From Spirochaetota bacterium (GTDB taxonomy: Bacteria > Spirochaetota > UBA4802 > UBA5550), in contig JBBAGC010000001.1 in NCBI GenBank assembly GCA_041655115.1, forward strand, positions 1 to 52,774: 52,774 nucleotides of DNA, given 5' to 3'. The position numbers and the translations under genes are program-made. Under the pieces are notes generated by a model. That model was given only the letters and a program-made list of their open reading frames with translations. It did no database searches and had not been told where the DNA came from. Positions 10,515-50,570 of this stretch are shown piece after piece; the stretch's first letter is position 1; each line of letters begins with the position of its first letter.

Positions 10515-10662
10515 AAGATCTTTAAAAACTATCGATTGTGTCATTTCGACTTCTCCTCTGTCCCTTCGAACGCATGTGAGAAGTCTGAAAGATCCCTCGC
10601 TTTGCTCGGGACATGGATTTCTCGTCGCGATGCTCCTCGAAATGACAAAATTCAAGGGTCTC
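10515..10662 (+). mobile_element. MITE-like repeat copy R3
   Basis: A degenerate left terminus AAGATCTTTAAAAACTATCGATTGTGTCATTTCGA, one 20-bp unit, the conserved core, and a right terminus ending in GGGTCTC. A perfect 5-bp direct repeat TCTTC flanks it at 10510-10514 and 10663-10667. Confidence 0.85.
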
Positions 10663-21023: not shown

Positions 21024-21134
21024 GAGACCTTTAAAATTTTGTCATTTCGACCTCTCCCCTGTCACTTCGAACGCATGTGAGAAGTCTAAAATATCCCTCG
21101 CCTTGCTCCTCGAAATGACAAAATGAAAGGTCTC
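21024..21134 (+). mobile_element. MITE-like repeat copy R4 (short, internally deleted)
   Basis: GAGACCTTTAAAATTTTGTCATTTCGA, one 20-bp unit, a partial core, then TCGAAATGACAAAATGAAAGGTCTC. No flanking duplication is seen. Confidence 0.75.
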
Positions 21135-21233: not shown

Positions 21234-22187
<954 letters not shown>

Positions 22188-23216
22188 TCAGGTAGCATTT
22201 CTTGCACCACACTCATAGCCGGCATCCACAAGGGTGCGTTCTCTTTTCGCCTCTTCGAGATCCGCGGCAACCATCATGTCGATAAGCTCCCTGAAGGACG
22301 TCTTCGGTTCCCATTGCAGCTGTTTCAGAGCCTTTGAAGCATCACCCAGAAGAACATCCACCTCGGTGGGCCGGAAATAACGCTTGTCTATCCTGACGTA
22401 GTCGTCAAATCGCAGATCCAGTCTGCTGAAAACCTCCTCCGCAAATTCCCGTACTGAATGGGTTTCTCCCGTAGCAATAACGTAATCGTCAGGTTTGTCC
22501 TGCTGCAGCATCAGCCACATGGCTTCCACGTAATCGCCCGCATAGCCCCAGTCCCGCTTGGCATCGAGGTTACCCAGGTACAGCGTATCCTGAAGCCCCA
22601 TTTTGATCCGGGTCGCCGCCCGTGTGATTTTTCGTGTAACAAAGGTTTCTCCGCGCCGGGGCGATTCATGGTTGAAGAGGATGCCGTTGCAGGCATACAG
22701 TCCGTAAGCATCACGATAGTTTTTTGCCACGTGGTAGGCATAGACCTTGGCTACCGCATAGGGGCTTTGAGGCTGGAAAGGCGTCGATTCACTCTGGGGC
22801 GGCGGCGCCTCTCCGAACATTTCGCTGGATGATGCCTGATAGAACCGTACTCCAATACCGGACTTTCGAATAGCTTCGAGGAGTCGTGTAGTACCAAGGC
22901 CGGTAATATCTCCCGTGTACTCGGGGAGATCGAAACTGACCCGCACGTGACTCTGGGCTCCCAGGTGATAGATTTCATCGGGCCTGATGTCGTAGAGAAG
23001 GGCCGCCAGATGGGCCGAAACGGCCAAATCTCCAAAATGCAGAAACAACCGCGTGTCCGGCTCATGGGGATCGCGGTACAGATGATCGATCCGTCCCGTA
23101 TTAAAGCTGCTGGACCGGCGGATCAGTCCATGCACCTCGTATCCTTTGCCGAGCAACAACTCAGCCAGATAGGAACCATCCTGGCCGGTAATGCCGGTAA
23201 TGAGTGCTTTTTTCAT
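22188..23216 (-). CDS. gmd: GDP-mannose 4,6-dehydratase
   Basis: [39 protein letters not shown] and other motifs are diagnostic of Gmd. The ATG at 23216 is preceded by AGGGAG. Confidence 0.9.
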
Positions 23217-23313
23217 TCTCAACTCCCTGTAAAGATTTTATGGGGCCAACGCCTGCCGTGTATATTTTGAACAGTTACTACCGCTGCCGCCCTCATGCCG
23301 GCGTTCATTGAAT

Positions 23314-23721
23314 GAGACCTGGTTTGAAAAACTATCGATTGTGTCATTTCGATATCAAGGAAAGATTTCTCGTCGCTTCGCTCCTCGAAATGACATAATC
23401 ACGATGCTCTTCGAAATGACATTTTTAAAGGTCACTTCGAACGCATGTGAGAAGTCTTAAAGATCCCTCGCTGTGCTCGGGACATGGATTTCTCGTCGCT
23501 CTCGCTCCTCGAAATGACGGACCTGAAGGCGCTCCTCGAAATGACAAGGACAGCTTTGAATACCAGCCATTTTTGTCATTTCGACCGTAGGGAGAAATCT
23601 TTTACTAACGGCCGTCATCAGGATTTCTCGTCGCTTCGCTCCTCGAAATGACGGACCTTAAGGCGCTCCTCGAAATGACATAATCGCGATGTTCCTCGAA
23701 ATGACACAATGCAAGGGTCTT
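23314..23721 (+). mobile_element. MITE-like repeat copy R5 (408-bp composite of several modules)
   Basis: The left terminus is GAGACCTGGTTTGAAAAACTATCGATTGTGTCATTTCGA. Several GTCATTTCGA/TCGAAATGAC hairpin modules and the conserved core follow. The right terminus is ...TGACACAATGCAAGGGTCTT. A perfect 5-bp direct repeat TGAAT lies at 23309-23313 and 23722-23726. The element ends 8 bp from the stop codon of the gene at 23730. Confidence 0.8.
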
Positions 23722-23729
23722 TGAATGTC

Positions 23730-24806
23730 TCATCGCCGGCGATTGATTGTTGAACGGACACGGTAAGACGTGAGTGTAAACACGATACAACTCATGATGA
23801 GCAGAGTAACGACAATATGCATGCCAACAGCAGAGGCCGCCAGGACGCCCAGGCCGATCATCAGTTGCACAAAGCCGTATATTACCGTCACTTTCCAGTG
23901 GTCCATCGCACATTCGTTCGCCAGCAACTGGTATAGGTGGCGGCGATGCGGCTTCAGCAGATTTTCCCCCGCTCGAAGACGGACACACATCGTCGTTACT
24001 ACATCCGCATAAAAAGGGAACAGGAGCGCGGCAAAGCAGATCATGTCCCGGTAACTCCGGGACAGCATGAGCACCAGGACGGCAAAGACAAATCCAAGGA
24101 GAATGCTACCCACATCCCCCATGAATACTTTTGCTCGAGGCATGTTAAAAGGCAGAAAACCCAAGCAGGCAAGGGCAAAGCAGATCGCAAGAAGGGAAAA
24201 GGCCTCTTTATCCGCACCAAGCGGCACAAAATAAAGAGTATAACAACCCAGGAGACCAAAAGAGATAACGCCGCTTACCCCCGCAATGCCATCGATGCCA
24301 TCCATAAAATTATAAAAATTCGCCGTGCCGACCACAAACAATACAATCATGATGACGATCAGAAAAAATAGTACCGGGAAAGCTCCACCGACCGTCGCCA
24401 GTTCAAACTTCAGCAACAGGTGCGGTAGAAGGGGAAACAAAACAATCACCGCAGCAACACACTGAACAACAAGCCGAAACGAGGCTGACAGCCGGGCATA
24501 GTCCCCATACAAGCTGACAGCGGACACAACAATAGCGGTAAAGAGAAACGTTGTTGGAATGCGGAGTGTCATTCCTGCCACAAGGAAAGCCGCCAGGATA
24601 CCGACTCCCCCACCTTGAGGCGTTGGAACATCATGGGAACTCCGGTCTCGTGGATAGTCCAGCAATCGCTCTCGAAACGGCAGTTCTGAGATAAGCCATC
24701 CGCCGGCGAATCCGAGAAATGCGCATGCCAGGTACAGCAGAGTGATCTGGTGCCGGGCAACCCATCGTATGGACTCGGTCAAAATGACAGACAGGTCAAG
24801 AGTCAT
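23730..24806 (-). CDS. Polyprenyl-phosphate HexNAc-1-phosphate transferase (MraY/WecA/WbpL family), copy 2
   Basis: A paralogue of 2434-3546 with YPRDRSSHDVPTPQGGGVGI, NFYNFMDGIDGIAG and FMGDVGS motifs. The start was set at ATG 24806 (MTLDLSVILTES...) to match the length of the paralogue. The 16 upstream ORF codons are MITE sequence. Confidence 0.8.
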   Translation of the reverse strand: MTLDLSVILTESIRWVARHQITLLYLACAFLGFAGGWLISELPFRERLLDYPRDRSSHDVPTPQGGGVGILAAFLVAGMTLRIPTTFLFTAIVVSAVSLYGDYARLSASFRLVVQCVAAVIVLFPLLPHLLLKFELATVGGAFPVLFFLIVIMIVLFVVGTANFYNFMDGIDGIAGVSGVISFGLLGCYTLYFVPLGADKEAFSLLAICFALACLGFLPFNMPRAKVFMGDVGSILLGFVFAVLVLMLSRSYRDMICFAALLFPFYADVVTTMCVRLRAGENLLKPHRRHLYQLLANECAMDHWKVTVIYGFVQLMIGLGVLAASAVGMHIVVTLLIMSCIVFTLTSYRVRSTINRRR

Positions 24807-24818
24807 AGTGGAGAGATT

Positions 24819-24997
24819 GAGACCTTTATTGCATTGTGTCATTTCGAGGAGCATCGCGACGAGAAATCCTGATGACGGCCGTTAGTGAAAGATTTCTCCC
24901 TACGGCCGAAATGACAAAAATGGCTGGTATTCAAAGCTTTCTCGAAGTGACGGGGGAGAGGTCGAAATGACACAATCGACAGTTTTTTAAAGATCTC
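24819..24997 (-). mobile_element. MITE-like repeat copy R6 (reverse orientation)
   Basis: GAGACCTTTATTGCATTGTGTCATTTCGAGG ... TCGAAATGACACAATCGACAGTTTTTTAAAGATCTC. A perfect 5-bp direct repeat AGATT lies at 24814-24818 and 24998-25002. The element begins 12 bp upstream of the start codon at 24806. Confidence 0.8.
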
Positions 24998-25086
24998 AGA
25001 TTGTTTTCAAAAATTTTTCTCGACCGATTGGCGGACAGCACTCACTTCGACCACGCTATGCAGAGAGCAATAAACACGGAACTGAG

Positions 25087-25980
25087 TCAACGCCGGCCTG
25101 TCAAGAATAAAGATTTGACCCCGTGACGGAGGCTCACTGCAGCAAACCTGGTCCACACGCCGATTCCCACTATCCAGAACAGAATTCCCGGGTACTGGTG
25201 GCGGAAGAATTTCCCGTAAAAGCGCATCATCCCTCTGTGTTTGTGCCATTCCACGAATATGGGCCGTCCCGTGCTGCATGTTCCCTGGCAGTGAACCACC
25301 GGGGCATCGGGCACAAAGACAACCTGCCAGCCGTTGCGGCGGAATCGCATGCACCAGTCAAGATCCTCGCAATGGAGGAAATAGCCTTCGTCCCAGGGAC
25401 CGACATCGGCAAGGGCGGTTCGTTTGACCAACATGCAGGAACCGGAAATAGCCTCTACCTCAACGGGTTTCTCTGGAAGCGGCTCCTGGTTCAGGATAAA
25501 ATCTGAAAACAGCTTCGGATAGCGATTCCGCAATCGGGAAAGGCCAAACGCACGAACGAACGAACGCCAGGGCGTCGGCACCGCTCGCCTTCCCCCCGCC
25601 TGTTCCGTACCATCCGGATTGAGCAACAGCGGTCCTGCCATTCCCGCCCGCGGAGTGCGCTCCAGGCAGGAACGAAGTACCATCAGAGATGCCGGTTCAA
25701 CACGACAGTCCGGGTTCACAAACAACAAATACTCCCCCGACGCGGCACCGAGTCCGATATTACAGGCTCCGGCAAAGCCCTCGTTCTCTGTATTACGAAT
25801 TACTTTCAATCGTTTCGACGAAGCATTCAGCCGTTTCAACGAATCGACACTGTCATCATCAGACGCATTGTCGATCACCAAAACTTCGGCAACGATCTTC
25901 GAACGCAACAGGGCCCTGACATTGTCCTTGAGCATGTTACCCGCGTTATAATTGACAATGATGGCAGACACGTTCGGCAT
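25087..25980 (-). CDS. GT2-family glycosyltransferase
   Basis: VSAIIVNYNAGNMLKDNV...VIDNASDDDSV...NEGFAGACNIG motifs. The ATG at 25980 is preferred over the GTG at 25998, which would overlap the upstream gene. Confidence 0.8.
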   Translation of the reverse strand: MPNVSAIIVNYNAGNMLKDNVRALLRSKIVAEVLVIDNASDDDSVDSLKRLNASSKRLKVIRNTENEGFAGACNIGLGAASGEYLLFVNPDCRVEPASLMVLRSCLERTPRAGMAGPLLLNPDGTEQAGGRRAVPTPWRSFVRAFGLSRLRNRYPKLFSDFILNQEPLPEKPVEVEAISGSCMLVKRTALADVGPWDEGYFLHCEDLDWCMRFRRNGWQVVFVPDAPVVHCQGTCSTGRPIFVEWHKHRGMMRFYGKFFRHQYPGILFWIVGIGVWTRFAAVSLRHGVKSLFLTGRR

Positions 25981-25984
25981 AATC

Positions 25985-26860
25985 TCAGAGAAATCCACGG
26001 GGCGAGAAGTTCAGATCCCGGATCGCTTCCGTGTTGTCAAAATTCATATCGATATTCATTCGTTCCGCCATGCTCACGTTCCAGTTCCGGTATCGGGGGA
26101 AACACCTGATCACCGCAACCAGAAGCCGAAAGAGTCCCACCGGTACCTGGATCACTCGCACAGGACGGTCAAGCATCGTGGAGATCCTGCAAATCATGTC
26201 TCGATAAGACAAGGTTTCCCCACCGGAAAGAGTATAAACTCGGTTGATTATACCCGGCTTTTCAAGGGCCGAACGACAGGCACACGCCACGTCTTCAGCA
26301 TGAACCGGCTGACGCAATCCCTGAGCCCGACCCACCAGGGGGAAAAAGCCGAAACGCTGAATAATGCGCGCCAGGGCAGTGATATTTCCATCATTTTTCA
26401 GATCGTACACCATGGTGGGACGCAGGATTACCCAATCGGTTTCCTTCGTGCCGGCCCACCGCCACAAGCACTCTTCACCTTTTTCCAGCAGTTCCGCCGT
26501 CAGGCGCTCTCCTTCATCGGCAGAATCTCTTTTAGTGAACCGGCTTGTCGATGAAAGGGCAACGATACGCCGCGTTCCCGCCTGTTCGAGCATGGGGAAA
26601 TAATGTGGCAGGACCCATATCGGCGCAAGACAAATCCAAAGCGGTATCGATTCTGTGCCGCCGGATGCATCCACCGGAAGGGTCCGCCAATCAACTGTTT
26701 CCGAAAAACGTCGCCGCGCCTCCATCCCGTTGCGCGTAAAGGCAACGACACGCCAGCCGGCATCGACCAGGAGGGGTATCAGGTAGTTTCCCACCAAACT
26801 GGTCGCTCCGATGACGCCGACAATTGTTTTGCCTGTCGATGTGGTTACTTGATTCGCCAA
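25985..26860 (-). CDS. NAD(P)-binding SDR-family protein (nucleoside-diphosphate-sugar epimerase/reductase-like)
   Basis: GVIGATSLVGNYLIPLLVDAGWRVVAFTR is a Rossmann motif. The ORF appears to start at a TTG. Confidence 0.6.
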   Translation of the reverse strand: MANQVTTSTGKTIVGVIGATSLVGNYLIPLLVDAGWRVVAFTRNGMEARRRFSETVDWRTLPVDASGGTESIPLWICLAPIWVLPHYFPMLEQAGTRRIVALSSTSRFTKRDSADEGERLTAELLEKGEECLWRWAGTKETDWVILRPTMVYDLKNDGNITALARIIQRFGFFPLVGRAQGLRQPVHAEDVACACRSALEKPGIINRVYTLSGGETLSYRDMICRISTMLDRPVRVIQVPVGLFRLLVAVIRCFPRYRNWNVSMAERMNIDMNFDNTEAIRDLNFSPRGFL

Positions 26861-26890
26861 AGAAATGCCGGAACTTTGAGCTGATTCCTC

Positions 26891-27118
26891 GAGACCCTTA
26901 TTGAAAAACTATCGATTGTGTCATGAGACCTTTACATTGTGTCATTTCGAGGAGCGCCCGGGGTACCGTCATTTCAGGGAGCGCCCGGGATACCGCCATT
27001 TCAGGGAGTACCCAGGGTACCGTCATTTCGAGGAGCGAAGCGACGAGAAATCTTTCTTTAATATCGACATGTTGCAAGATTGCTCCCTGCGGTCGAAATG
27101 ACACAATGTAAAGGTCTC
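26891..27118 (+). mobile_element. MITE-like repeat copy R7
   Basis: Two tandem left termini (GAGACC at 26891 and at 26925). Three 27-bp tandem units lie at 26951-27031. The right terminus TCGAAATGACACAATGTAAAGGTCTC is a perfect inverse of 26925-26950. A perfect 5-bp direct repeat TCCTC lies at 26886-26890 and 27119-27123. Confidence 0.8.
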
Positions 27119-27187
27119 TCCTCTATGCCGGACGGGGTTTAACGGCACACTCCAATACGAGAAGGTCACCGCGGGACTATGGAATCC

Positions 27188-28033
27188 TCACCCATCCGGA
27201 TACCGTTCAAGAAACTCCACCAGCGCCTCCCGCCAGTGAGGCAGAGGCCTATAGCCCTTAAGGCGCAAGGCCCGCTTCTCCAGCCGAGAGTTAGACGGCC
27301 GTTGCGCTGGACGTGGATACTCACTGGAGGAACAGGGTACCACGGACCGGGTACAATGTTTCAGGGTAAAAATCTCCGAGGCAACATCATACCAGGTCGC
27401 TTCGCCTTCGCAGGAAGCGTGAAAAATGCCGGATTCGTGACGTTCCAGAAACTGTTCGATCAGGCCCGCCAAAGCGTCTGTCGAGGTAGGGTTGCCGACC
27501 TGGTCGTTCACAACCCGTACCGGCGGCCCCTCTTCACGCCCCAGGCGCATCATGGTGTGAACAAAACTCGGGCCTCCCTTCCCATACAGCCAGGCCGTAC
27601 TCAAAATGGCCGCATCGGGACAGAACCGCAGGATAGCTTGTTCTCCCGCCAGCTTGCTTCGGCCGTAGGCCGTGCGCGGCGCAGGCTCGTCGTCTTCACG
27701 ATAGGGCCGGTCCAGTGTCCCGTCGAACACATAGTCAGTGGAGATTGCGATCAAACGGGCGCTGATCAGCGCCGCGGCCTGCGCAACATTTGCCGAACCC
27801 CCGCCGTTGATGCGCATCGCCTCGCCTGTTTTCGTTTCGCAGTCGTCAACGGCTGTCATGGCCGCCGCGTGAACAACACAGTCAGGACGTTGCGCCTCAA
27901 AGAAATCCTTCAGGGCATCTCCATCGGTTATATCTCCCATGGAACGGGTAAAACTGATCACCTCGTGATCACCAAGCACGCGGCAGAGCGTTCTGCCCAG
28001 CATGCCCCGGCCCCCGGTAACAAGTATCTTCAT
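27188..28033 (-). CDS. rfbD: dTDP-4-dehydrorhamnose reductase
   Basis: MKILVTGGRGMLGRTL..., a YGRSKLAGE motif, and an ATGA overlap with rfbC. Confidence 0.9.
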   Translation of the reverse strand: MKILVTGGRGMLGRTLCRVLGDHEVISFTRSMGDITDGDALKDFFEAQRPDCVVHAAAMTAVDDCETKTGEAMRINGGGSANVAQAAALISARLIAISTDYVFDGTLDRPYREDDEPAPRTAYGRSKLAGEQAILRFCPDAAILSTAWLYGKGGPSFVHTMMRLGREEGPPVRVVNDQVGNPTSTDALAGLIEQFLERHESGIFHASCEGEATWYDVASEIFTLKHCTRSVVPCSSSEYPRPAQRPSNSRLEKRALRLKGYRPLPHWREALVEFLERYPDG

Positions 28034-28605
28034 GGCTTCGATAATTCTTGATACACCGGAAGATGTTCCAAGGAAATCGATTGCAGAGTGGGAAGAAGGA
28101 GATCTTTATCGGACAAGAGAGGCAGCGTTCCTTTCAGAGACCAGTCAATGGCAAGATCCGGATCGTTCCAGGCAATACCACGCTCCGTCTCGGGCGTGTA
28201 AAAATCGGTACACTTGTAAACGAAATGGGCATCGTCACTGAGTACGAGAAAACCGTGGGCGCAGCCTGCGGGAATGTAGAGTTGGCCGGCCGTTTCACCG
28301 GTGAGCACGAAAGACGACCACGTACCAAATGCGGGTGACCCCCGCCGGATATCCGCCACCACGTCCAGAACTTCACCCCGCAGACACTGTACCAGCTTCC
28401 CCTGTGGCCGGGGCCACTGGTAATGGAGCCCCCGCAGAACGCCCCTGCGTGAGAAGGAAAGATTATCCTGCACCAGGGAACCCGGAATGCCCGCCTCCTC
28501 GTATCGATCCCGCTGAAAGGTTTCGAGGAAAAACCCTCGCCCATCCCGAAAAATGTCGGGCGTCACCAGGATCAACCCGGGAATATCAAACCGTTCGACC
28601 CTCAT
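28030..28605 (-). CDS. rfbC: dTDP-4-dehydrorhamnose 3,5-epimerase
   Basis: FRDGRGFFLETF, LRGLHYQ and DVVADIRRGSPAFG motifs. Confidence 0.9.
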   Translation of the reverse strand: MRVERFDIPGLILVTPDIFRDGRGFFLETFQRDRYEEAGIPGSLVQDNLSFSRRGVLRGLHYQWPRPQGKLVQCLRGEVLDVVADIRRGSPAFGTWSSFVLTGETAGQLYIPAGCAHGFLVLSDDAHFVYKCTDFYTPETERGIAWNDPDLAIDWSLKGTLPLLSDKDLLLPTLQSISLEHLPVYQELSKP

Positions 28606-29480
28606 CAGGCACGCTCCCCGTTTACCACTTCCATCAGATATGTGCCGAAATCACTGCCGCCCAGTTCCTGTGCCAAACGGATTACCTGCGTGTGGTCAAT
28701 GTATCCCATTCGCCAGGCGATTTCTTCCGGCACCGCTATTTTCAGGCCCTGGCGGGCCTCAATTGTATGTACGAAAGAGGCCGCTTCCAGGAGCGACTCG
28801 GGCGTTCCCGTATCAAGCCAGGCCGTACCCCGGCCCAGCAGTTTCACATTCAGCGATCCCTCCCGGAGGTAAAGGTTGTTGAGATCGGTTATCTCCAGTT
28901 CTCCCCTTGCGGACGGTTTCAGTGACCGTGCCATGTCAACCACCCGATCATCGTAAAAATAGAGTCCCACCACGGCATACTTGGACTTGGGCATCTTCGG
29001 TTTCTCCTCAATCGAGGTGACCGTGCCCGATTCATCGAAGGCAACCACGCCATACCGCTCGGGATCGCGCACCCAGTAGCCGAAGACGGTGGCACCTGCA
29101 TTTCCCTGCACCACCTCCTGCAACAGCTTCGCCAGCCCCTGGGCGTAAAAGATATTGTCGCCCAGAATAAGACAGGCGGCACCGCCGCCAAGAAAATCAG
29201 CCCCGATAAGGAAGGCCTGGGCCAGTCCGCCCGGATGGGGCTGCTCGGCATAGGACAGCGAAATCCCCCACTGCGAACCGTCGCCCAGAAGGTCGCGGTA
29301 GCGCGGCAGGTCACGGGGCGTACTGATCACAAGAATCTCCCGCAGCCCCGCCAGCATCAAGGTAGTAAGCGGATAATAGATCATCGGTTTGTCATAAACA
29401 GGCAGCAACTGCTTACTTGTCACCCGCGTCATGGGATAAAGCCGTGTGCCGCTGCCGCCGGCGAGAATAATACCTTTCAT
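28605..29480 (-). CDS. rfbA: Glucose-1-phosphate thymidylyltransferase
   Basis: [38 protein letters not shown] is diagnostic of RfbA. The ATG at 29480 is preceded by GAGGTG. Confidence 0.9.
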
Positions 29481-29582
29481 GGTCACCTCGAGTTATGGGT
29501 CACTGTTCGAGCAACGTCCTCACGATTTGGCGGGAGGAAGTTGACGCCGATGACAAGGCCGGTTTATTTGACATCCTTTTGG

Positions 29583-30287
29583 TCAGTCAGATGCTACCAA
29601 GAAGGGCATTAATTCCGTCTGTGCCCGCTCGTATTCTTCGGGTACGCCGATATCAATAAACTGCTCGGTCGTCACGAACAAATCAAAAGGGGAAATGGCC
29701 ATTTTCTTAGCAAAATAATCGATTTCTAGAGAAAAAGGTCTGTACAACGGGCAATGATCAAGTTGCCCCTTATTCAAGACATAACAGCCGGCATTAATTA
29801 ATCCGGGCCCATCTAAACCTTTTTCTTCGAAACCAATGATCTTGTTCTGATCGGTTACTAATCGTCCGTATCGATTCGTATCAGCCACATACCGGCCCAC
29901 GATAATCGGCCGTCGATGATCCTGCCAGTGCCTTTCAACTTTTTCAGTTTCCAGTGCAAGGAAAGTATCACCATTGAAAATATACACATGATCGTTGCTG
30001 CATTCTTCCATTGCCAGACGTACAGCACCCCCCGTTCCCAGTGGAGACTTTTCAACCACATAGGCAAGCTCAAGACCGGAAAAATGATCGCCGAAATGCG
30101 AGATAATTGTATCAGCCATGTATCCTACTGAGAGAACAACACGACCGAAGCCATGCCGAGCCAAGTAGAGCAATACTATTTCAAGAAATGGCCGACCTGC
30201 AATCGGCGCCATCGGTTTCGGCAGATCGGGCACTGCCTTTTTCAAGCGCGTCCCAAAACCACCAGCGAGAACAATTCCTTCGTACAT
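29583..30287 (-). CDS. hddC: Sugar-1-phosphate nucleotidylyltransferase, HddC-like (D-glycero-D-manno-heptose-1-P guanylyltransferase family)
   Basis: MYEGIVLAGGFGTRLKKAVPDLPKPMAPIAGRPFLE... The gene is paired with an HddA-like kinase gene. Substrate specificity was not established. Confidence 0.6.
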   Translation of the reverse strand: MYEGIVLAGGFGTRLKKAVPDLPKPMAPIAGRPFLEIVLLYLARHGFGRVVLSVGYMADTIISHFGDHFSGLELAYVVEKSPLGTGGAVRLAMEECSNDHVYIFNGDTFLALETEKVERHWQDHRRPIIVGRYVADTNRYGRLVTDQNKIIGFEEKGLDGPGLINAGCYVLNKGQLDHCPLYRPFSLEIDYFAKKMAISPFDLFVTTEQFIDIGVPEEYERAQTELMPFLVASD

Positions 30288-30348
30288 AAATGCTCTTATT
30301 TATCAGGTTGTTGTTTTGACGGTCAGGATGTTCTCGAAAGAACCAACC

Positions 30349-31392
30349 TTATTTTCGACGCATTATGATATCACCCCATGCCGTTGCACCGCGTTTGGTG
30401 AAGTAACAATTACTCACTTGTCCTTTGAAATGCTCCAGTGTTCTAACTACGTCCATGCGCCGCTCAGGAGGAACAAAGAACATCATGTATCCTCCCCCAC
30501 CGGCCCCGGACACTTTCCCCGCCAAGGCACCGGCATCAATGGCCGCATTGTATATTTCTTCTATGTGTTGGTTTGATACTGTTCCGGCAGACTTCTTTTT
30601 GCTCTCCCATCCTTGGCGCATTGATTCCACAATGCCTTCAAAATCTGCCTTCAGCAGACATTCTTTCATGGCCAGCGCTTCACGCTTCATGCCGTGCATT
30701 GCTTCCATTGCGATTGCAGATCCTGTTTTAATGTTGTCGCTCTGATCTGCAATGATTTTCGCCGATTCGCGTGACACGCCTGTATAGAACAATATCAGCG
30801 ATGCTTCTAATTCACATATAATCCAATCCTTGATTCTCAAGGGATTAATTATGGCTCTCTCATCATGATAGAACTCCATGAAATTAAAACCGCCAAAAGC
30901 CGCAGAATATTGGTCCTGCCGTCCCCCCTGGAGTCCACAGTCAACACGTTCTATCTTAAAGGCTAGTTGGGCTATTGTATAATCATCAAGGGGGAGGTTC
31001 AGCAGTTCGACAAAAGCACGGATCATTGCTACCACAAGCGTGGAAGAAGCTCCAAGTCCCGATCCGACCGGCGCATCGCAAAAGGTACTCAATTCAAGAG
31101 GTATCGGAACACCACCGTTGTAATGCTGAATCATTTCGTTGTAAACGGCTTTGTGGAGATTAAACTTGCCGTTCAGCGCAAGCGGTTCACCGATAGCTTT
31201 CACTTTCGTCGCTTGCTGATCGGTAGCCGAAAATTTCACATAAGGGTCATCAATCGTTTCGATTATTGCATAGGCATACCGGTCGATAGTCGCATTCAGA
31301 ACGTACCCTCCATGTAAATCGCAGTAAGGTGAAACATCTGTGCCACCACCGGCCAGACCGAGCCTTAACGGTGCACGGGATCGAATGATCAT
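30349..31392 (-). CDS. hddA: GHMP-family sugar kinase, HddA-like (heptose-7-P kinase / fucokinase-like)
   Basis: MIIRSRAPLRLGLAGGGTDVSPYCDLHGGYVLNATI and a PVGSGLGASS GHMP motif. The ATG at 31392 is preceded by GAAGGGGGG. The longer ORF (to 31443) would overlap the upstream gene. Confidence 0.6.
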   Translation of the reverse strand: MIIRSRAPLRLGLAGGGTDVSPYCDLHGGYVLNATIDRYAYAIIETIDDPYVKFSATDQQATKVKAIGEPLALNGKFNLHKAVYNEMIQHYNGGVPIPLELSTFCDAPVGSGLGASSTLVVAMIRAFVELLNLPLDDYTIAQLAFKIERVDCGLQGGRQDQYSAAFGGFNFMEFYHDERAIINPLRIKDWIICELEASLILFYTGVSRESAKIIADQSDNIKTGSAIAMEAMHGMKREALAMKECLLKADFEGIVESMRQGWESKKKSAGTVSNQHIEEIYNAAIDAGALAGKVSGAGGGGYMMFFVPPERRMDVVRTLEHFKGQVSNCYFTKRGATAWGDIIMRRK

Positions 31393-31402
31393 ACGCCCCC
31401 CT

Positions 31403-32140
31403 TCAGAGTTGTGAATCATTTGTAAATGGCGGCCTCGTCTCATTGGATTTTTTCAGGGACTTCATGTCATCTGCATACTGGTTCAAGTGCAGACGCATTT
31501 CCCGACCCGGCTGCATATTTGTTTTCGTCCTGTGTCCTCCTGCTGACGCCTCAGCCCGCAAACGTTTACGAATGATCAATTCAATGCCGCACTCTGCCAC
31601 CGGTGTCATGGTCTGATCGTAACGAGGCAAGTCAAACCGGTAGGTTGAAGAAAGTTGTTCGATTTTAATAACATCCGCCGCCTGCCCAAGCTTGCGAACC
31701 AGATCCACCAGATTAATTGAGCGAGGGCTCCATGATTTTTCCTTGAAAACAGTAAAGGTCCACTTGTGATCGCGATTGAATGTACTAGGAAATACACCCT
31801 GCTCATACAGGTCTTCGTCCGGCACGGTGATAACCAGGTATCCGCCTTCGCAGAGAACCCGGAACCAGTTACGCAAACCCTCTTCGGGGTCATTAAGGTG
31901 TTCCAGGCAATGACTACTATGGACAAAATCCAGCGATTCGTCGTCAATCCCCCCAAGGAATTGAGCGTCACCGTCTTCCAAGTCCCATGTCCTGACAGCT
32001 TTTATCAGGGGAAACAATTCGCCGTACAAAGACAACGGGTCTGGCTTACCGCCGATATCCAGACCGGAACCGACAAAATATCTGCGTACAAAATTTGAAT
32101 CTGCGAGCCGACGCTGAATTGCTTTACTACATTCTTTCAT
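31403..32140 (-). CDS. Class I SAM-dependent methyltransferase
   Basis: GLDIGG...DFVHSSHCLEHLNDPEEGLRNWFRVLCEGGYLVITVP is a Methyltransf_11-like pattern. Confidence 0.7.
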   Translation of the reverse strand: MKECSKAIQRRLADSNFVRRYFVGSGLDIGGKPDPLSLYGELFPLIKAVRTWDLEDGDAQFLGGIDDESLDFVHSSHCLEHLNDPEEGLRNWFRVLCEGGYLVITVPDEDLYEQGVFPSTFNRDHKWTFTVFKEKSWSPRSINLVDLVRKLGQAADVIKIEQLSSTYRFDLPRYDQTMTPVAECGIELIIRKRLRAEASAGGHRTKTNMQPGREMRLHLNQYADDMKSLKKSNETRPPFTNDSQL

Positions 32141-32146
32141 TGTTTT

Positions 32147-32935
32147 TCACCTGCCCTTAAAGGCTCTGAACACAAAGTGCGGCCATATCTGTTCAGAATT
32201 TAAGCCATCGCGGCGAATCAACAAGTTTTCGACTACTTCGGTAGCACCAATACAACTCGATACAGTGGCGTCGTCAAACACGACATACCCTCCGTCAACC
32301 ATAAAAGGTTTCACGCCCTCGTATGAAAATTTAACTGCTGGGGCAATATCGCAATCGATATGGGCCAGACTGACTCTTTGCGCCTGATTCATCACAGCTT
32401 CATTGGTATCTTCAAAGAAACCTTTTACCAGTATCAAATTATCCAGTTTCAGCTCATCAATCCGTGATTGTAATTGATTGAAATCGGCATCTGAGAAATC
32501 CCCTGCATTGTGCGCATCCACAGTTTTATCAGTCGGCGGCATGCCGACAAAACTATCCAGGGCAAAAACCTTCGTCCCCGGATACAGTTTTTTAACGACA
32601 TAGGCCATAAAAATCGCGCTGCCGCCGCGATATGCTCCATATTCCACGATATGCCCGGATGGGATCTTCTCTAAAAAAAACCGCAGAATAAGATAAATAT
32701 TCATTCTGTTCTCTTCGCTCATAATCGTTCTGTCCCTGGCGACATCGAGCGCTTCTTGATACAAGGGATCCGCCAGAATTTTTTCCTTTAATCCGCCGAA
32801 CTGAAGGCCCCAGCCACGCTGATAACCTTCATACACATTTCGTCCGTTTCTTATGCCATCAACTAATCCCTGCAACTCAGGAAGATAAGATACGTGCGGG
32901 ACAGACTGCCGGGCAAATATCTTTTTAAAAATCAT
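32147..32935 (-). CDS. TylF/MycF/NovP-family sugar O-methyltransferase
   Basis: HIVEYGAYRGGSAIFMA...ALDSFVGMP...LAHIDCD...GGYVVFDD is typical of macrocin-O-methyltransferase-like enzymes. Confidence 0.75.
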   Translation of the reverse strand: MIFKKIFARQSVPHVSYLPELQGLVDGIRNGRNVYEGYQRGWGLQFGGLKEKILADPLYQEALDVARDRTIMSEENRMNIYLILRFFLEKIPSGHIVEYGAYRGGSAIFMAYVVKKLYPGTKVFALDSFVGMPPTDKTVDAHNAGDFSDADFNQLQSRIDELKLDNLILVKGFFEDTNEAVMNQAQRVSLAHIDCDIAPAVKFSYEGVKPFMVDGGYVVFDDATVSSCIGATEVVENLLIRRDGLNSEQIWPHFVFRAFKGR

Positions 32936-32939
32936 CTTT

Positions 32940-35900
32940 TTAGCCCTTTACGGCACGAATGTAGTGCTGCCCGGGTCCGAGGTGTCCATATACCTCTGAC
33001 CAGTAAAAATGCAATGCGGCTTCGCTGAAGCCCGCTCTTTTTATATCATCGACGAATTGCCAACCAAAATCAGTAAATACAAGCGATCCATCATCGGATA
33101 CCGGGTTGCCATGAAAAACAGGCGGGAGAATATAATTCACATTGCCATCAATAATTTTGGCACGACACACGCTATCTTCCCTGTCCAGATGAAAGGGAAC
33201 AGTCATCAACAGTTCGCCCCCCGGTTTCAGTACCCGGCACATCTCCCGCAAGGCTTTAATCGGGCTTGTAACATGTTCAAGAACATCGTTGCTGATAATA
33301 ATATCAAATCTTCCACTTTCAAAGCTTAGTTTTTCCGCATCTTCGTGTCTTATTCCCTTTACAATTTTCCCCGGCGTCAGTTCCGCACCCAAATACTCAC
33401 TGCCGGTATAGAGTGCCCGCGGCAAGCAATCGTTCAGACATTTATAAACAGGCGTAACCTGTTCCATAAGATACACTGCCGGCATCCTGTCGCGAAAAGA
33501 TTGAATAGTTCGACACGCTTGAAACACAATCATTCTTTGTCGGTTATTCAAGCCACAACTCGAACAAACCAGACGCTCGCGCCAATTGGGTATCCACACA
33601 CCTCGATCTTCAACAGCACCGCATTGCTGATCCACCAAATACTCTACTTCACGATCACAAACTCTGCAGTAACCCAGCAGATGGTAGGCTGCTACGCCAC
33701 TATTCTCCATGGCGATGCGCCGCTCCGTCGCGCAGCAATCCTGAAATTCCTGAGAAATCGACCAGTCATCATATTCAGTTTTGGTTGAGGCAGTTAAAAT
33801 AACTTCCAGTAAATCTCCGGTCTGATCCATGCATATTACCCCATCGGATCTATTCGGTGACACCTCATTAAGGGGCTTGCGTACTATCTTGCTGCTATCG
33901 ACTCCGATATCTTTCAGCAACGCTTCAACCGTATTGATACCGGCTTCCAGCGAGTAATTGCGTCGCACAAAATCCAGGCCGCCCCGTGAGCAGGAATTCC
34001 ACAGTTCCGCATCTTGATACAGGCGCACAACTGTATCGGCGAAATCCGAAGGTTCATCCGCTACTATTACGCCATCGCCTTTCATCAAGTCCATTCCCTC
34101 AGCGCCGATCGTAGTTGCAACGCAGGGCAATCCGTAGCTCAGGCTGGTGCCGATTTTCCCCTTAATCCCGGAGCCGTAGCGCATGGGTGCCACACTCATA
34201 CGGCAATAATCAAATATCTCTCTCAGATCCTCGACGTAACCAACCACTTTTATGTTGTCATCTGCCAGAGCCAGCACTTCGGCGGGTGGGCGACTGCCTA
34301 CAATGTAAAAAGCGATTTCCGGCAATTGCTGTCGAATCAATGGAAATATCTCGTTTACAAACCAACACACACCATCAATGTTCGGCCGATGTTGAAAACC
34401 CCCAACAAACACTATATCGCGACGTTCTTCGCCGGGTGTCTTTGTTCCGGGCGCAGCTATGGCCCATGAAAAAAGATAAATATTGCTTTTTCGCATTTTC
34501 CCTGTCAGTTCAGCGTCCAGCAGTTCCTTCTCAGTTGAACTATGGACGATGGTAGCATCCGCAGCCTGAATAATGCGCATTTCTCGTTTTCGTGTCTTTT
34601 CCGCCGCTCGACGCAAATCATCAGAATCAACCAGTTCTGCCTCGCGTAGTTCTCTCAGATGGTGCAGATCAGATGTATGAAATACTAATTTCGCATTGGG
34701 GCAGTATTTACGAATTGCCGCCAAATTACGTTCCGCCGACAATAGTCGAAAAACGACAACAACATCATATTGTTCCCCGTTTTGAGACAAATACCGATCG
34801 ATCGACGTGACATGCGGTGCATACAGACACTCTATCCCGATCCGTTGGAGATCTTCTGTATAAGGTTCCATGAAAAGAAAATTGTCTTCCGGGACAAAGG
34901 TTACCTTGAAGTCCAATCCCTGCAAGATGCGCATGAGATTCAGTGCCGTGATTGAACCGGCATCCTGGTCAGGGGTTGGTGTGCAATGATCCAGCACCAA
35001 GGCGCGGCCACTTACTCTGCGGTCTTTTTCCTGTTCAGGGTTCACTCCCGGAACACCATGTCCCACAATCATTTCTTTCCAACGAGCAAAAAGCTTATTT
35101 GCATTCTCCACCTGGTACGCCTTAACGCCCGAAGAAACCTCAGTGCCGGATGTGATTCCTTCGAAGTGGATCACCTCGGACAGGGGTTGATACAGCACCC
35201 GATAGCCGGCTTGACGGACACGGAAAGCAAGATCGGAGTCCTCTCCATAGGCAGGCAAATAATGCTCGTCAAAACCGCCCAGACGGTCGAAAAGCTCTTT
35301 AAGAATCATCAAAGACGCGCCGGAGCAGTAATCCACGTCGCGAAGGTAGTTGAACTCAGGTCTGCTTGGGTCCTGCAACCGCCCATAATTCCAGCCCGAC
35401 CCATCCTGCCAGATAATGCCTCCAGCTTCCTGCAGGCGGCCGTCGGGATAGACCAGCTTCGAGCCGACCAGCCCGGCCTGGGGAACGCAGTTAAAAGTAT
35501 TTACTAATTCATCCAGCCAGCCGCTCCTGACGACTGTATCGTTGTTTAATATGACAACAAGTTTGCCGCGTGCCCTCTTTACGCCGCGATTACAGGATTT
35601 GATAAAACCGAGATTCCTTCTGTTGCGAACAATGTGTAACCCCTTTATGTTCTTTAACATATCCAGTGTGTTGTCGGGTGATCGATCATCAACGACAATT
35701 ACTTCAAAGCTGTAATGAGATCGATGCGATCTGAGTGACCGTAGACATTGATAAGTGTACTCGACCTTTCCGAAAACCGGGATTACGATAGAAACTGTTG
35801 GTTTATCGGGGCACAAGAGGTCGAAAGGTTCACCTGGAGAGGTAGGTTCACCATATTTGTATTGTGATTGGGTTGCACCGGGTAGTTGAGTTTTCCATAA

Positions 35901-36953
35901 ACTATATGAAAGGGTATGCGAAAAAATGCCGGGGAAAAATCTGTACAAAAAACTTTTTAGTCGATTCTTCGTTAACGTGGAAACCGGAAGGTGGCTATAA
36001 ATTGCTCGGAACAAAACGACAATAATTTCTTTGGACTGATTCACAATGTAACGCCACATGCCTGCGATGCGGCGTATCGGGGCGGTCATTTTCCATGAAC
36101 GGGAACGGTATATGTCGTTAATGGTCGCATTGAGCCGATCAATCTCTTGCCTTGCCGTTTGACGTTCGCTTTCCAGAAAATCATTCAGCCTATGGATTTC
36201 TTCAGATGTGCTCTTACGTTCATAATACAGAACTCTTAGGAGCCCTTCAGCCGCGACCGAATTCCCCAGAATTCTGTAGAGAGTGAGGATTTTATCGGTT
36301 GTTTCTTCATCGCTACCGAATAACTCGGGAAGAATTTCAGCAGCATGTTTCCCGTAAGCGAGCACGCCCAACCCGTTGGAATGCTGAAACGCAAAAGAGG
36401 GATATTCGATCTTCAACTCATCCCATAATTTCCAGACGCCAAAATCGCCCTCATGTACAGCAATATCGTGCAGCAGAATGACTCCGCGATCACTCATCTT
36501 GAGTTTCCAGTTGTCAAAGTCATGCCGGACGGCCTCATAGGTATGCAACCCGTCTATATGAAGCAGATCAATGGAACCATCGGGAAACCGGGGAACCGCA
36601 TCGTCAAACGTAGATTGAATCAGGAGTGAGAAATGCCCATACTGCTGATCATGTTTCTCACGCAATTCCTCAAAAACTTCTTCTCCATAGTAGCCGGAAT
36701 GTTCATCGCCTGCCCACGTATCAACGGCAAAACACCGTGTCGGCAATTTGAAACGGGAAACAGCTTCGCAGAAAACGAAGTACGAATCCCCTTTGTGTAC
36801 TCCCAATTCGACCAGATTTCGAGGCATTAATTGCCGGACCAGCATAAATGCAAAGGGTATATGCCCATGCCATGAAATAATCTCACCGGTTGTGCGAGGC
36901 GACCAGTCATCAGGCTTAAATATAGATAATTCCAGAAAGCGGTTTGATTTCAT
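32940..36953 (-). CDS. 1337-aa multidomain glycan assembly protein: N-terminal methyltransferase, coiled coil, GT2, GT4-like GT, then zinc-ribbon plus a C-terminal methyltransferase
   Basis: Domains by residue number:
- aa 40-170: [10 protein letters not shown]...[13 protein letters not shown]...VILLHD (methyltransferase)
- aa about 235-290: heptad-rich, charged segment
- aa 386-600: [13 protein letters not shown]...[10 protein letters not shown]...[11 protein letters not shown] (GT2)
- aa 850-960: VGGF...[30 protein letters not shown] (Glycos_transf_1)
- aa 1096-1135: CxxC...CxxC
- aa 1215-1255: [13 protein letters not shown]...[12 protein letters not shown] (methyltransferase). Confidence 0.75.
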
Positions 36954-37558
36954 CTCATACCCACTGTCATTGCACGGTGCCTCAAGCTTCGTACCGCCCT
37001 CATTTTAATGTTCTGCCAGAACCCTTTGTCCGGTTTTCGGCAAACCAACATGGAATCATGCCACCAGTCGCTCCCGTCCTCGTAGCCCTCATCCGACCAC
37101 TGTGTGGAAACTTCAATCACTTCAAGGTGCGCGAATTTCGCCAGTGAGCGCATACCGTCAGGGTAAAATCGCCAGCAATCCAAAGGATATCTGTGTTCCG
37201 GACCACTGGATGGCGCCAGGATGCAACATATGCCGGCCGGTTTTAGCACCCGTGCAATTTCCAGCATTGTTATCCAGAAATACTCGATATGCTCGAACGC
37301 CTGGCCGGAAATGACCACGTCTGCTGAGTTGTCTGTAATTTCTCGCCAAACATATGGTGTGTGTAATACTACATCCACATTATCGCCTTGTGCCATGTCA
37401 ATACCGATATACATCCACTTCGGCTTATGAAACAAAGAACGATATGAACCATTTACATCCTGGCTTCCCAGATCGTAAATGCGCAGAGAGACATCTTCTT
37501 TTCCCGAAAGATACCTCCGGCAAAAATCTTCCATCTTCTTAAATGAACTGGCGTGCAT
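36950..37558 (-). CDS. Class I SAM-dependent methyltransferase
   Basis: [11 protein letters not shown]...[15 protein letters not shown]...[12 protein letters not shown]. An ATGA overlap links it to the 1337-aa gene. Confidence 0.7.
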
Positions 37559-37572
37559 ATTCAGTTTGATTG

Positions 37573-38355
37573 TCAGTCTGGCAAGCGATAGATCCAGGCA
37601 TCAGGCCAATAAGTCAATTCTTCTATGACGTGCTCATTCCCGCACAGTGCGGGCGGACGTTTGATAACAAATTCAGGGTGAGCGGCTACAAACTCACGAG
37701 CAGCCGTAGCCGGATTATCATCGATCCATTCAGCCTTCCCCCATGGCGTGTCTGCAAGGTGTTGCATTACACCATCAGCGGCAACTATATATGATCCCGG
37801 TGTAACCATGTCTGCATATGCATTAAGCTCCTCCATCACATGAGATTTTGAATGATCGCTGTCAAGGAAAACAAAAACCTTGCTGTCTGATTTGGTATGT
37901 TCCCGTACCTTTTCCACCACCGCAGTCGACGTGGAATCTCCTTGTATCAAAGTGATCAGATCTCCAAAAGGACTTTGCTCTATTCTCGCCCGCAAATCCG
38001 CCGGTACGACAATATCAACCGAAACGACACGTCCTTTACCAAGCAGACGACATAGGGTTGCAAAAAAAATTGAACTTCCTCCTTGACTAACTCCGGTTTC
38101 GACGATTACATCCGGCCTAAGGGCAACAATTATCTCCTGAAGTCGCAGCAGATCATCCGGAAATTGCCAGACAGGAAAGCCAAACCAGGAAAAGGTTTGC
38201 CAGTGCAACTGGTTCCATTCCTGTTTAATCCAGATACTGGAAAGCAATCTGAATCCTTCTTGCGAGTAAAGCGGGATATCTACTTCGTTGCCACCATTTC
38301 TGGTTTGAATGATGAGTTCATCGGTATCAATTATGATTTTCACAGTATTCCTCAA
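37573..38355 (-). CDS. CmcI / cephalosporin-hydroxylase-family SAM-dependent methyltransferase, copy 2
   Basis: FSWFGFPVWQFPDDLLRLQEIIVALRPDVIVETGVSQGGS parallels the protein encoded at 14572-15378. The start is a TTG at 38355, or possibly a GTG four codons downstream. Confidence 0.7.
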   Translation of the reverse strand: MRNTVKIIIDTDELIIQTRNGGNEVDIPLYSQEGFRLLSSIWIKQEWNQLHWQTFSWFGFPVWQFPDDLLRLQEIIVALRPDVIVETGVSQGGSSIFFATLCRLLGKGRVVSVDIVVPADLRARIEQSPFGDLITLIQGDSTSTAVVEKVREHTKSDSKVFVFLDSDHSKSHVMEELNAYADMVTPGSYIVAADGVMQHLADTPWGKAEWIDDNPATAAREFVAAHPEFVIKRPPALCGNEHVIEELTYWPDAWIYRLPD

Positions 38356-38504
38356 TTGGCTTACTTGTTCGATTCCTCTGAAGTATTCGTTGCTCTTTGG
38401 ATTTTACGAATGCATTGTTCGGGCGACATACCATCTACATAGCACATGTGTTGGTTTGATATGTCCTGACAGAATGATCCTGAGTTTGATGGAAAATTTG
38501 TTGG

Positions 38505-40484: not shown

Positions 40485-40512
40485 AACTTTCGCCTTTTTT
40501 AACTGGTGCTTA

Positions 40513-41210: not shown

Positions 41211-41230
41211 AATACGTTCGCTGTTGTAGC

Positions 41231-43639: not shown

Positions 43640-43727
43640 ATTCACCTCTCTGAAACAACTTGCTCCTTTCTACTATTCGCTTCACGAGTAAAGATACCAT
43701 TTCTTCAGAAGAAGTTTTCTCGTTGGA

Positions 43728-44714: not shown

Positions 44715-44753
44715 ATTCACCTCTCTGAAATTTGACGCTCGATGGGGGACTTG

Positions 44754-50509: not shown

Positions 50510-50570
50510 CAACTGGATTTATTCTTCGAATACTGCATCTCGTTTTCGTGGGAATGACGTGAAGGAGGTT

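Follow-up and report, generated by a model that had tools for sequence, protein, structure and literature searches.

Prokaryotic MITEs, among them the Correia elements (CREE) of Neisseria, ERIC, RUP, Nezha and MITE-Aba12, are non-coding elements of less than 500 bp with terminal inverted repeats and target-site duplications, and they are found in many intergenic copies that are co-transcribed with their neighbors and fold into long hairpins. They also serve as substrates for recombination and are recognized recombination hotspots (PMC10969869). Another class of small dispersed element, the REPINs, consists of REP doublets mobilized by RAYT transposases (PMC3116915). The BOX elements of Streptococcus pneumoniae and the enterobacterial BIMEs are instead modular: they lie between the genes of operons and combine a small set of sub-units that varies in copy number and arrangement. 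Repeats can also act as switches at surface-glycan loci, as in the capsule promoter invertons of Bacteroides and the RecA-dependent sap inversion of Campylobacter fetus, which uses RecA and long homologous repeats. The locus described here has likenesses to all of these systems, and also departs from each.

We analyzed a 52,774-nucleotide stretch of a Spirochaetota contig (the window), in which a second initiating transferase gene, wbpL-2 (23730–24806, minus strand), is enclosed by two repeat elements. The gene encodes a WbpL/WecA-type polyprenyl-phosphate HexNAc-1-phosphate transferase of 358 aa with a PF00953 domain (GT4/MraY-WecA family, E = 2.6e-32). Its translation contains the motifs NFYNFMDGIDGIAG and VFMGDVGS, which align to MraY structures and conform to the NxxNxxDGxDG and FMGDxGS signatures of the PNPT superfamily. 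Homologs carry the name 'Fuc2NAc and GlcNAc transferase', and the NCBIfam WecA score of 85, against a cutoff of 326, indicates that the protein is not a strict E. coli-type WecA. Because these homologs are 357–358 aa long, the ATG at 24806 was taken as the start codon. A GT2 glycosyltransferase gene lies upstream in the same direction (25087–25980, minus strand), while gmd (GDP-mannose 4,6-dehydratase; 22188–23216, minus strand) and then fcl (21234–22166) follow downstream. The paralogous first initiating transferase gene, wbpL-1 (2434–3546, minus strand), shares 57% identity with wbpL-2. Across the window and a further 7.5 kb, Pfam assignments were limited to glycan, sulfate-activation, toxin-antitoxin and restriction genes.

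The two enclosing elements are R5 (23314–23721, plus strand; 408 bp), a composite MITE-like element, and R6 (24819–24997, minus strand; 179 bp), a shorter one. R5 is built, in order, of a long terminal repeat, a hairpin unit, core A, core B and a short terminal repeat; R6 has a long terminal repeat, one 20-nt unit, core B and a short terminal repeat. The long terminal repeat (GAGACCTTTAAAAACTATCGATTGTGTCATTTCGA type) terminates R5 on the left and R6 on the right, such that the elements face in opposite directions with these repeats at their outer ends. Each is flanked by its own perfect 5-bp duplication, TGAAT for R5 (23309–23313 and 23722–23726) and AGATT for R6 (24814–24818 and 24998–25002). 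The edge of R5 is 8 bp from the wbpL-2 stop codon (23730–23732) and that of R6 is 12 bp from the ATG. The core B modules make up the arms of a 104-nt inverted repeat, the left arm at 23549–23652 (plus strand; GACAGCTTTGAATACC... followed by a hairpin-module doublet) and the right arm at 24838–24941 (minus strand). These arms are 1185 nt apart and 94% complementary, with six mismatches (23551, 23584, 23603 and 23635–23637) and a longest uninterrupted identity of 32 nt. A repeat of this length is far beyond chance, yet expected given the family context described below. The first-pass annotation had reported close bracketing of the gene, opposite orientation and independent insertion of the two elements, all of which held in our measurements, and had put the inverted repeat at about 100 bp with about five mismatches, which needed only slight revision. 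The composite architecture of R5 recurs as a unit, at 81–84% identity, in related metagenome contigs, which rules out local nesting as the origin of its core B. Insertion at related metagenome loci is marked by a different duplication, GATGC.

R5 and R6 belong to a family of 10 copies in the 52.8 kb analyzed, with termini GAGACCTTT...AAAGGTCTC and a core motif, TCGAAATGAC, with 46 occurrences in the window where 5.7 would be expected. The other copies, 111–258 bp long, are E1 (936–1165), E2 (1849–2106; a direct repeat with E1 over 212 nt at 88%), E3 (10515–10662; duplication TCTTC), E4 (21024–21134; short, with no duplication left), E8 (26891–27118; rearranged, duplication TCCTC), E9 (47758–47903) and E11 (52136–52245; right end undefined) on the plus strand, and E10 (50316–50510; duplication AACTG) on the minus strand. 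Terminal inverted repeats (GAGACCTTT...GTCATTTCGA) are present at both ends of nearly all copies. Perfect 5-bp duplications border five of the nine complete copies (R5, R6, E3, E8 and E10), where about 0.009 would be expected by chance, and four of five positions match at E9. None of the copies has coding capacity, the sole open reading frame that enters them being a spurious 5' extension of wbpL-2. Inverted pairs are common: four of the nine neighboring copy pairs are in inverted orientation, R5 and E10 share an inverted repeat of 167 nt (96%), and E9 and E10 one of 102 nt (91%). Outside the window, a family-specific 21-mer matched another 28 stretches, spread over three other metagenome data sets; at these loci paired element ends were only ~120–400 bp apart. 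The same 21-mer had no match in GTDB species genomes, and plasmid and phage collections gave none either; the shell of the family is specific to a lineage without a representative among GTDB species genomes. A literature search for MITEs in Smithella found nothing.

In small size, lack of coding capacity, terminal inverted repeats, target-site duplication and multiple dispersed copies, the family agrees with prokaryotic MITEs. It differs from those described in having no identified parent IS or transposase: no transposase is encoded in the window or the 7.5 kb adjoining its start, the DNA searched yielded no autonomous parent element, and the mechanism of transposition is therefore deduced from the repeats and duplications alone. 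The interior is also strongly mosaic, with hairpin units that are interchangeable and a 20-nt unit repeated in tandem a variable number of times, and across related lineages conservation is higher in the interior module than at the termini, the reverse of what is typical for MITEs. Such mosaicism implies recombination among the copies on an evolutionary time scale. The modularity and the position between operon genes resemble BOX elements and BIMEs; however, those lack terminal inverted repeats and 5-bp target duplications and have no sequence relationship to the family.

Given this context, R5 and R6 are probably two ordinary, separate insertions of a prolific mosaic MITE-like family, which would have inserted into the short spacers separating wbpL-2 from its two neighbors, within a long, co-directional polysaccharide gene cluster of an uncultured anaerobe that is probably related to the Syntrophales. 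The 104-nt inverted repeat results from the presence of the same ordinary family module, core B, in both copies together with their chance insertion in opposite directions, and is a by-product and no purpose-built switch. Counting against the by-product reading, core B is confined within the window to the pair of copies around wbpL-2, R5 and R6; this restriction to neighbors of one gene is mildly suggestive, with a chance of about 0.2 (9 adjacent of 45 possible pairs). We also considered whether R5, wbpL-2 and R6 moved into the cluster together as a composite transposon. Both outer ends are indeed the long terminal repeat of the family, and class 1 integrons flanked by MITEs are known (PMC10969869). 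As in those integrons of Acinetobacter, a functional gene sits between two copies of one MITE family, but the integron unit shares one outer duplication whereas R5 and R6 have one each and their outer flanks differ. The separate duplications indicate that wbpL-2 was not moved by the elements; the pattern is that of two single insertions in place, and we rejected joint transfer as having a negligible probability. It is also very improbable that mis-joining across repeats during metagenome assembly created the arrangement or its orientation. The family does break other assemblies (one Logan contig terminates within E8 and a second begins within E3), but the R5–wbpL-2–R6 sequence is identical in the window, in a 64-kb JGI/NCBI contig and in a MEGAHIT contig from another sample (k141_744181, ENA ERZ27247376), the duplications are intact, and the arms, which differ at six positions, do not reach the length of a typical read. 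Both contigs are colinear with the window and align to 22940–40980 as a single block with one mismatch, far from the locus; the available assemblies of the locus are clonal (1 mismatch in 18–24 kb).

The first-pass annotation had further proposed that homologous recombination across the repeats could invert wbpL-2 relative to the operon promoter and so switch or tune initiation of the second glycan pathway. On this reading, RecA-type inversion between the core B arms would flip the gene relative to operon transcription and act as a low-frequency on/off switch for initiation of the second glycan. Phase variation often targets surface-glycan loci, and the segment resembles invertible switches in having extensive inverted repeats around a short stretch, here one complete gene, at a surface-polysaccharide locus. 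The recombination among copies that the mosaic family implies and the reputation of MITEs as recombination hotspots (PMC10969869) also speak for it. Nevertheless, several observations make such a switch unlikely. The copies of each duplication match in the present arrangement only, so the orientation co-directional with the operon existed at insertion and the assembly shows the ancestral state; had a crossover taken place within the arms, TGAAT would now be paired with AATCT. Independent consensus assemblies show this orientation only. Perfect identity between the arms reaches no more than 32 nt. In E. coli this is near the minimal length for efficient RecA recombination, and mismatches lower the rate further. 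Unlike inverton systems, the locus has no dedicated site-specific recombinase nearby (no invertase or other recombinase was found among annotated ORFs of the window and the 7.5 kb beyond its start), and the segment has neither a promoter nor alternative coding ends but is a whole gene, with no promoter-like site inside or upstream of it. The repeats are copies of a dispersed element that lie here incidentally, other genes are flanked by equally good repeat pairs, and nothing singles out wbpL-2. The predicted inverted junction (...CTCGAAATGACAAG + arm + ACAATGCAATAAAGGTCTCAATCTCTCC) had 0 matches in JGI metagenome contigs, a scan that is uninformative because the collection apparently lacks the window's own contig, from which none of the 28 stretches in the 21-mer scan derived. 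The homology of the arms could still permit rare RecA-type inversion, as in any inverted-repeat pair, and a minority inverted subpopulation may exist. A glycan inversion switch built from MITEs would, if true, be a case of mobile DNA creating phase variation, but the evidence favors ordinary insertions. The locus also offers a worked, cautionary example in which target duplications reveal the ancestral orientation of a repeat-flanked segment.

The insertions may still influence the gene in cis, an effect that would be compatible with two ordinary insertions. R5 and R6 would be co-transcribed with the operon, and on the mRNA the base of a predicted R6 hairpin would lie 12 nt before the AUG, with R5 structures just past the stop codon. 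These structures could modestly alter the processing, stability or translation initiation of wbpL-2, as REP, BOX and Correia-type elements are described to do. Of the effects that the insertions might have, the chief plausible one is a long RNA hairpin that would end 12 nt ahead of the start codon. Folded as minus-strand RNA, R6 is predicted to form one long hairpin (−59.5 kcal/mol, z = −3.6) in which the element ends pair with each other, and no shuffled sequence was as stable; the RNA fold of R5 has a z of −4.2. That R6 reduces wbpL-2 translation or uncouples it, or sets up a boundary of mRNA processing or stability, with R5 acting likewise at the 3' end and the outcome being a tuning of wbpL-2 relative to its neighbors, is a tentative proposal that we regard as possible but doubtful. 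In its favor, the hairpin is stable on the strand that is transcribed, no other family copy in the window lies as close to a start codon as R6, and in Smithellaceae relatives the homolog has a Shine-Dalgarno sequence and a 4-nt overlap with the gene upstream, a tight coupling that is absent here. Against it, the predicted R6 fold leaves the AUG itself unpaired, and R6 contains no predicted promoter-like or terminator-like sites; across the scan, counts of such matches equaled the shuffle expectation, with none upstream of wbpL-2. The absence of a clear Shine-Dalgarno sequence before wbpL-2, as previously annotated, was upheld, in that a scan upstream of the ATG gave no match. The accompanying claim that R6 replaced the native sequence was not, since R6 is a clean insertion. 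The empty site, reconstructed by removing R6 and one duplication copy (...GAAAACAATCTCTCCACT-ATG), has no Shine-Dalgarno match either, which rules out destruction of such a site; the signal was already missing before insertion, and R6 destroyed no known signal. Pairing energy with the anti-Shine-Dalgarno sequence is −3.4 kcal/mol at present, 0 in the empty site and −0.9 for wbpL-1. The latter gene and several others in the cluster also lack a Shine-Dalgarno sequence.

Within core B we identified a 31-nt hairpin module, GATTTCTCGTCGC-N3/4-GCTCCTCGAAATGAC, that is exact in >116 contigs of species-representative genomes, with hosts including Syntrophales, Desulfobacterales, Chloroflexota, Clostridia, Acidobacteriota, Omnitrophota and Spirochaetota. 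An inverted partner, GTCATTTCGA-ssNNNss-GAGAAATC, usually accompanies it; compensatory changes in the partner preserve the closing pairs of its mini-hairpin. Together they give a doublet unit of the form GTCATTTCGA-(mini-hairpin)-GAGAAATC, loop, GATTTCTC...TCGAAATGAC. The doublet is enclosed in lineage-specific terminal repeats. As in REPINs, inverted REP-like palindromes are here combined in a doublet that forms a hairpin: cores A and B are two inverted, imperfect palindromes of ~25–31 nt with a short spacer, making one long hairpin. REPINs, however, are lineage-specific, generate no target duplication and need a single-copy RAYT gene, whereas the doublets here are enclosed by a shell that has terminal repeats and duplications, and one module is identical across phyla. 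Rfam returned nothing for the whole window at gathering thresholds and, at E <= 1, only chance-level mir-280 and SAH riboswitch hits in 23200–25100; no paper describing the module was found. More speculatively, core B might be one case of a cross-phylum hairpin-module doublet that is undescribed as far as we found, a reading to which we give rather low credence. If the module were a functional DNA or RNA hairpin bound by a widespread protein, such as a HUH-type transposase or a host factor, it would represent a new cross-phylum mobile module. It would then seed local MITE families, and gene-flanking inverted pairs like R5 and R6 would be a general source of rearrangement. The exact conservation of the module across many bacterial phyla is a lead that may merit separate study.

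The elements also affect annotation and assembly. Some pipelines call wbpL-2 as a protein of 370 or 374 aa by running 12–16 codons into the MITE R6 (an exact-protein look-up of the 370-aa version gave no record), and short-read assemblies break at family copies. Elsewhere in the window, a 164-aa ORF (1338–1832) likewise had no record in an exact-protein look-up; it is probably spurious given the PemK/RHH pair on the opposite strand.

The 358-aa WbpL/WecA-type transferase gene wbpL-2 (23730-24806, minus strand) lies between two MITE-like copies, R5 (23314-23721) and R6 (24819-24997), an arrangement best read as the unremarkable result of a highly active MITE-like family spreading into the intergenic spacers of a glycan cluster. 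As the first-pass annotation had described, only 8 bp separate R5 from the stop codon and 12 bp separate R6 from the start codon, the copies are in opposite orientations, and they share a near-perfect inverted repeat of about 100 bp. Their long terminal repeats occupy the outer ends (left in R5, right in R6). The repeat finder returned arms of 104 nt (23549-23652 and 24838-24941; 94% complementary, spacing 1185 nt), and direct comparison of the arms gave 6 mismatches, with perfect blocks of 32, 18, 31, and 15 nt. R5 and R6 are also shown to be independent MITE insertions, as had been proposed, each being flanked on both sides by its own 5-bp duplication (TGAAT for R5, AGATT for R6).

The decamer TCGAAATGAC occurred 46 times in the window with at most one mismatch (5.7 expected), and matches were grouped at ten intergenic loci. 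Each copy has GAGACCTTT...GTCATTTCGA as one boundary and the reverse complement as the other, and the 5-bp flanking duplications were perfect in five of nine complete copies (about 0.009 perfect matches expected by chance) and agreed at 4 of 5 bases in one more. The family fits the usual prokaryotic MITE definition on all five counts, namely size, terminal inverted repeats, target duplications, copy number, and intergenic location (PMC10969869). Neither the window, nor the 7.5 kb outside it, nor the intervals between paired ends at the 28 related loci yielded a transposase, and we regard the family as uncharacterised but of a known kind. Its interior is a mosaic of a 20-nt unit (CCTCTCCCCTGTCACTTCGA; one to about six repeats) and at least one hairpin unit, of which there are two kinds, core A and core B. 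Within the window, core B is present in R5 and R6 only, and R5 is a composite of both cores. The same composite was found on contigs from other metagenomes (81-84% identity) with its own duplication, GATGC, so the composite is a propagating subfamily and did not arise by local nesting or by conversion from R6.

Repeats of this family fragment assemblies. Among short-read contigs of the same population, Logan contig L153 starts inside copy E3 (10545) and L158 ends inside copy E8 (27038), while L153 and L154 both terminate at 2138, a position about 30 nt away from copy E2; two ENA contigs end at 40952-40980, near an unannotated 746-bp gap (40485-41230). E8 is itself rearranged (26925-27040): its long terminal repeat is truncated, and behind it come a second GAGACCTTT end and three tandem units of ~26-27 nt (GGAGCGCCCGGGGTACCGTCATTTCAG type) that are absent from other copies.

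It had been suggested that recombination across the arms could act as an inversion switch for wbpL-2. A crossover within the arms would make R5 and R6 trade inner ends, and with them the inner duplication copies, placing TGAAT opposite AATCT. Both duplications match as now arranged, so the present arrangement is the arrangement at insertion, and wbpL-2 is currently co-directional with the operon. Across the locus, the window aligned as one colinear block both to the 64-kb JGI/NCBI contig and to the 52-kb ENA contig k141_744181 (sample ERZ27247376), and the exact 374-aa product annotated for wbpL-2 was found on three contigs. The window's sole difference from these two contigs and Logan SRR6484323 was at 27599 (A in the window, C in the others), inside rmlD and far from the R5/R6 locus. 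We found no gene for an invertase, integrase, or transposase near the locus (window and 7.5 kb beyond). Matched duplications, a single orientation in assembled contigs, and the lack of a nearby recombinase thus argue against a switch. For RecA-dependent recombination in Escherichia coli, the minimal efficient length is in the 20s of bp, and mismatches depress the rate; given that the longest perfect identity of the arms is 32 nt, with mismatches, any inversion between them should be rare. Comparable inverted repeats join R5 and E10 (167 nt, 96%), E9 and E10 (102 nt, 91%), and E10 and E11 (68 nt, 99%), a direct repeat joins E1 and E2 (212 nt, 88%), four of nine neighbouring copy pairs are inverted, and family copies likewise bracket several other single genes or pairs of genes. 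A scan of JGI metagenome contigs for the predicted inverted junction gave no match, which carries no weight because a positive-control-like scan of that collection failed to recover the window's own contig.

An effect of R6 on translation was the other possibility raised. The reported absence of a Shine-Dalgarno sequence was confirmed, with no match within 22 nt of the start and a best anti-Shine-Dalgarno duplex of -3.4 kcal/mol at -22. The claim that R6 replaced the native upstream sequence did not hold: R6 is an insertion, and deleting it with one duplication copy in silico gave ...TTTGAAAACAATCTCTCCACT-ATG, with no match at all (0 kcal/mol), so the reconstructed empty site has no Shine-Dalgarno sequence to lose. 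Pairing was also weak for the paralog wbpL-1 (-0.9), and several other cluster genes lack a Shine-Dalgarno sequence. On the transcribed strand, R6 is predicted to form a long hairpin of -59.5 kcal/mol (z = -3.6, more stable than every shuffle) with its base 12 nt from an unpaired AUG; the predicted fold of R5 is likewise structured (z = -4.2). Promoter- and terminator-like matches were at shuffle expectation, with none upstream of wbpL-2. REP, BOX, and Correia elements offer precedents that make a modest cis effect of R6 on processing, stability, or initiation plausible.

The open reading frame between the arms (23730-24854, minus strand) matches Pfam PF00953 and contains the catalytic-loop motifs NFYNFMDGIDGIAG and VFMGDVGS, which align to solved MraY structures. 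The wbpL-2 product is 57% identical to that of wbpL-1 (2434-3546, minus strand), and no other match exceeds 63-64% identity; the best are Smithellaceae, Smithella, and Syntrophales MAG proteins (JGI name 'Fuc2NAc and GlcNAc transferase'). Because homologs are 357-358 aa long and their alignments begin at residue 1, the start is placed at the ATG at 24806 (358 aa). R6 supplies an in-frame ATG at 24854 that prepends MLLEMTQCNKGLNLST (374 aa), and NCBI and ENA records call the gene from inside R6 (24807-24854), giving 370- and 374-aa products starting MLLEMTQCNKGLNLST; these calls are most likely an annotation artefact, the extension being translated MITE sequence. In Smithellaceae relatives, the homolog closes an FnlABC-type operon and shares a 4-nt overlap with the gene before it. 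A core-B-type unit also lies ~70 nt upstream of another organism's wbpL homolog (64% identical, following cysN/cysC-type genes; L002 5818-5945, L003 1501-1628), probably by coincidence, since such units are abundant.

Almost throughout, the window is a single co-directional (minus strand) polysaccharide super-cluster, comprising an FnlABC-like/GT1/WbpL-1 set with a Wzx-type flippase, CDP-sugar, GDP-fucose, and dTDP-rhamnose genes, many methyltransferases, sulfotransferases, a 1337-aa multidomain transferase, and an ABC-2 exporter, then PAPS-synthesis genes. Adjacent sulfotransferase genes (42608-43645 and 43728-44720) are recent tandem paralogs, with DNA segments 90-94% identical. PemK/MazF-type toxin and RHH antitoxin genes (1241-1806, plus strand) lie between directly oriented E1 (936-1165) and E2 (1849-2106), where recombination would delete the pair; a 164-aa minus-strand ORF (1338-1832) is probably spurious. 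Beyond the window start (L151 13073-18147; JGI contig 52301-57375), a defence-type neighbourhood (AbiEii/AbiEi, Eco57I-like and XhoI-like enzymes) adjoins the glycan cluster.

The lead most worth following is a cross-phylum hairpin module. Core units (23573-23652, 24838-24915, and others in the window; loci L007-L122) are doublets of GTCATTTCGA-(mini-hairpin)-GAGAAATC, a 15-36-nt loop, and GATTTCTCGTCGC-NNN-GCTCCTCGAAATGAC. Searched as an exact pattern (28 specified bases) in GTDB species representatives, the 31-nt second module, GATTTCTCGTCGC-N3/4-GCTCCTCGAAATGAC, was exact in more than 116 contigs among the matches listed, across over a dozen phyla. Hosts included Smithella, Syntrophales, Desulfobacterales, Desulfobulbales, Chloroflexota (including a 1.1-Mb Dehalococcoidia chromosome), Calditrichota, Binatia, Clostridia, Atribacterota, Acidobacteriota, Goldbacteria, Omnitrophota, Spirochaetota, Nitrospinota, and Gammaproteobacteria. 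The inverted partner, GTCATTTCGA-ssNNNss-GAGAAATC, was outside the search pattern and present in most matches listed. It shows a predicted mini-hairpin with compensatory changes: two closing pairs of the 7-nt centre (CC/GG, GC/GC, or AC/GT) were kept in 25 of 28 distinct units, and many centres were of GCGAAGC type. The long stem continued ~2 bp past the conserved core, compared with 0.4 in shuffles. No match to the module was found in Rfam families, in plasmid or phage collections, or in the literature by sequence string. Outer flanks of the doublets are lineage-specific inverted repeats (for example, GAGACCTTTGCA...TGCAAAGGTCTC in Syntrophales-type MAGs and CCCTACAACGACAC...GTGACGTTGTAGGG in Desulfobacterales). 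The doublet architecture resembles that of REPINs (PMC3116915); however, REPINs are lineage-specific and lack duplications, whereas one module here recurs exactly in many phyla and the core units lie inside elements with duplications.
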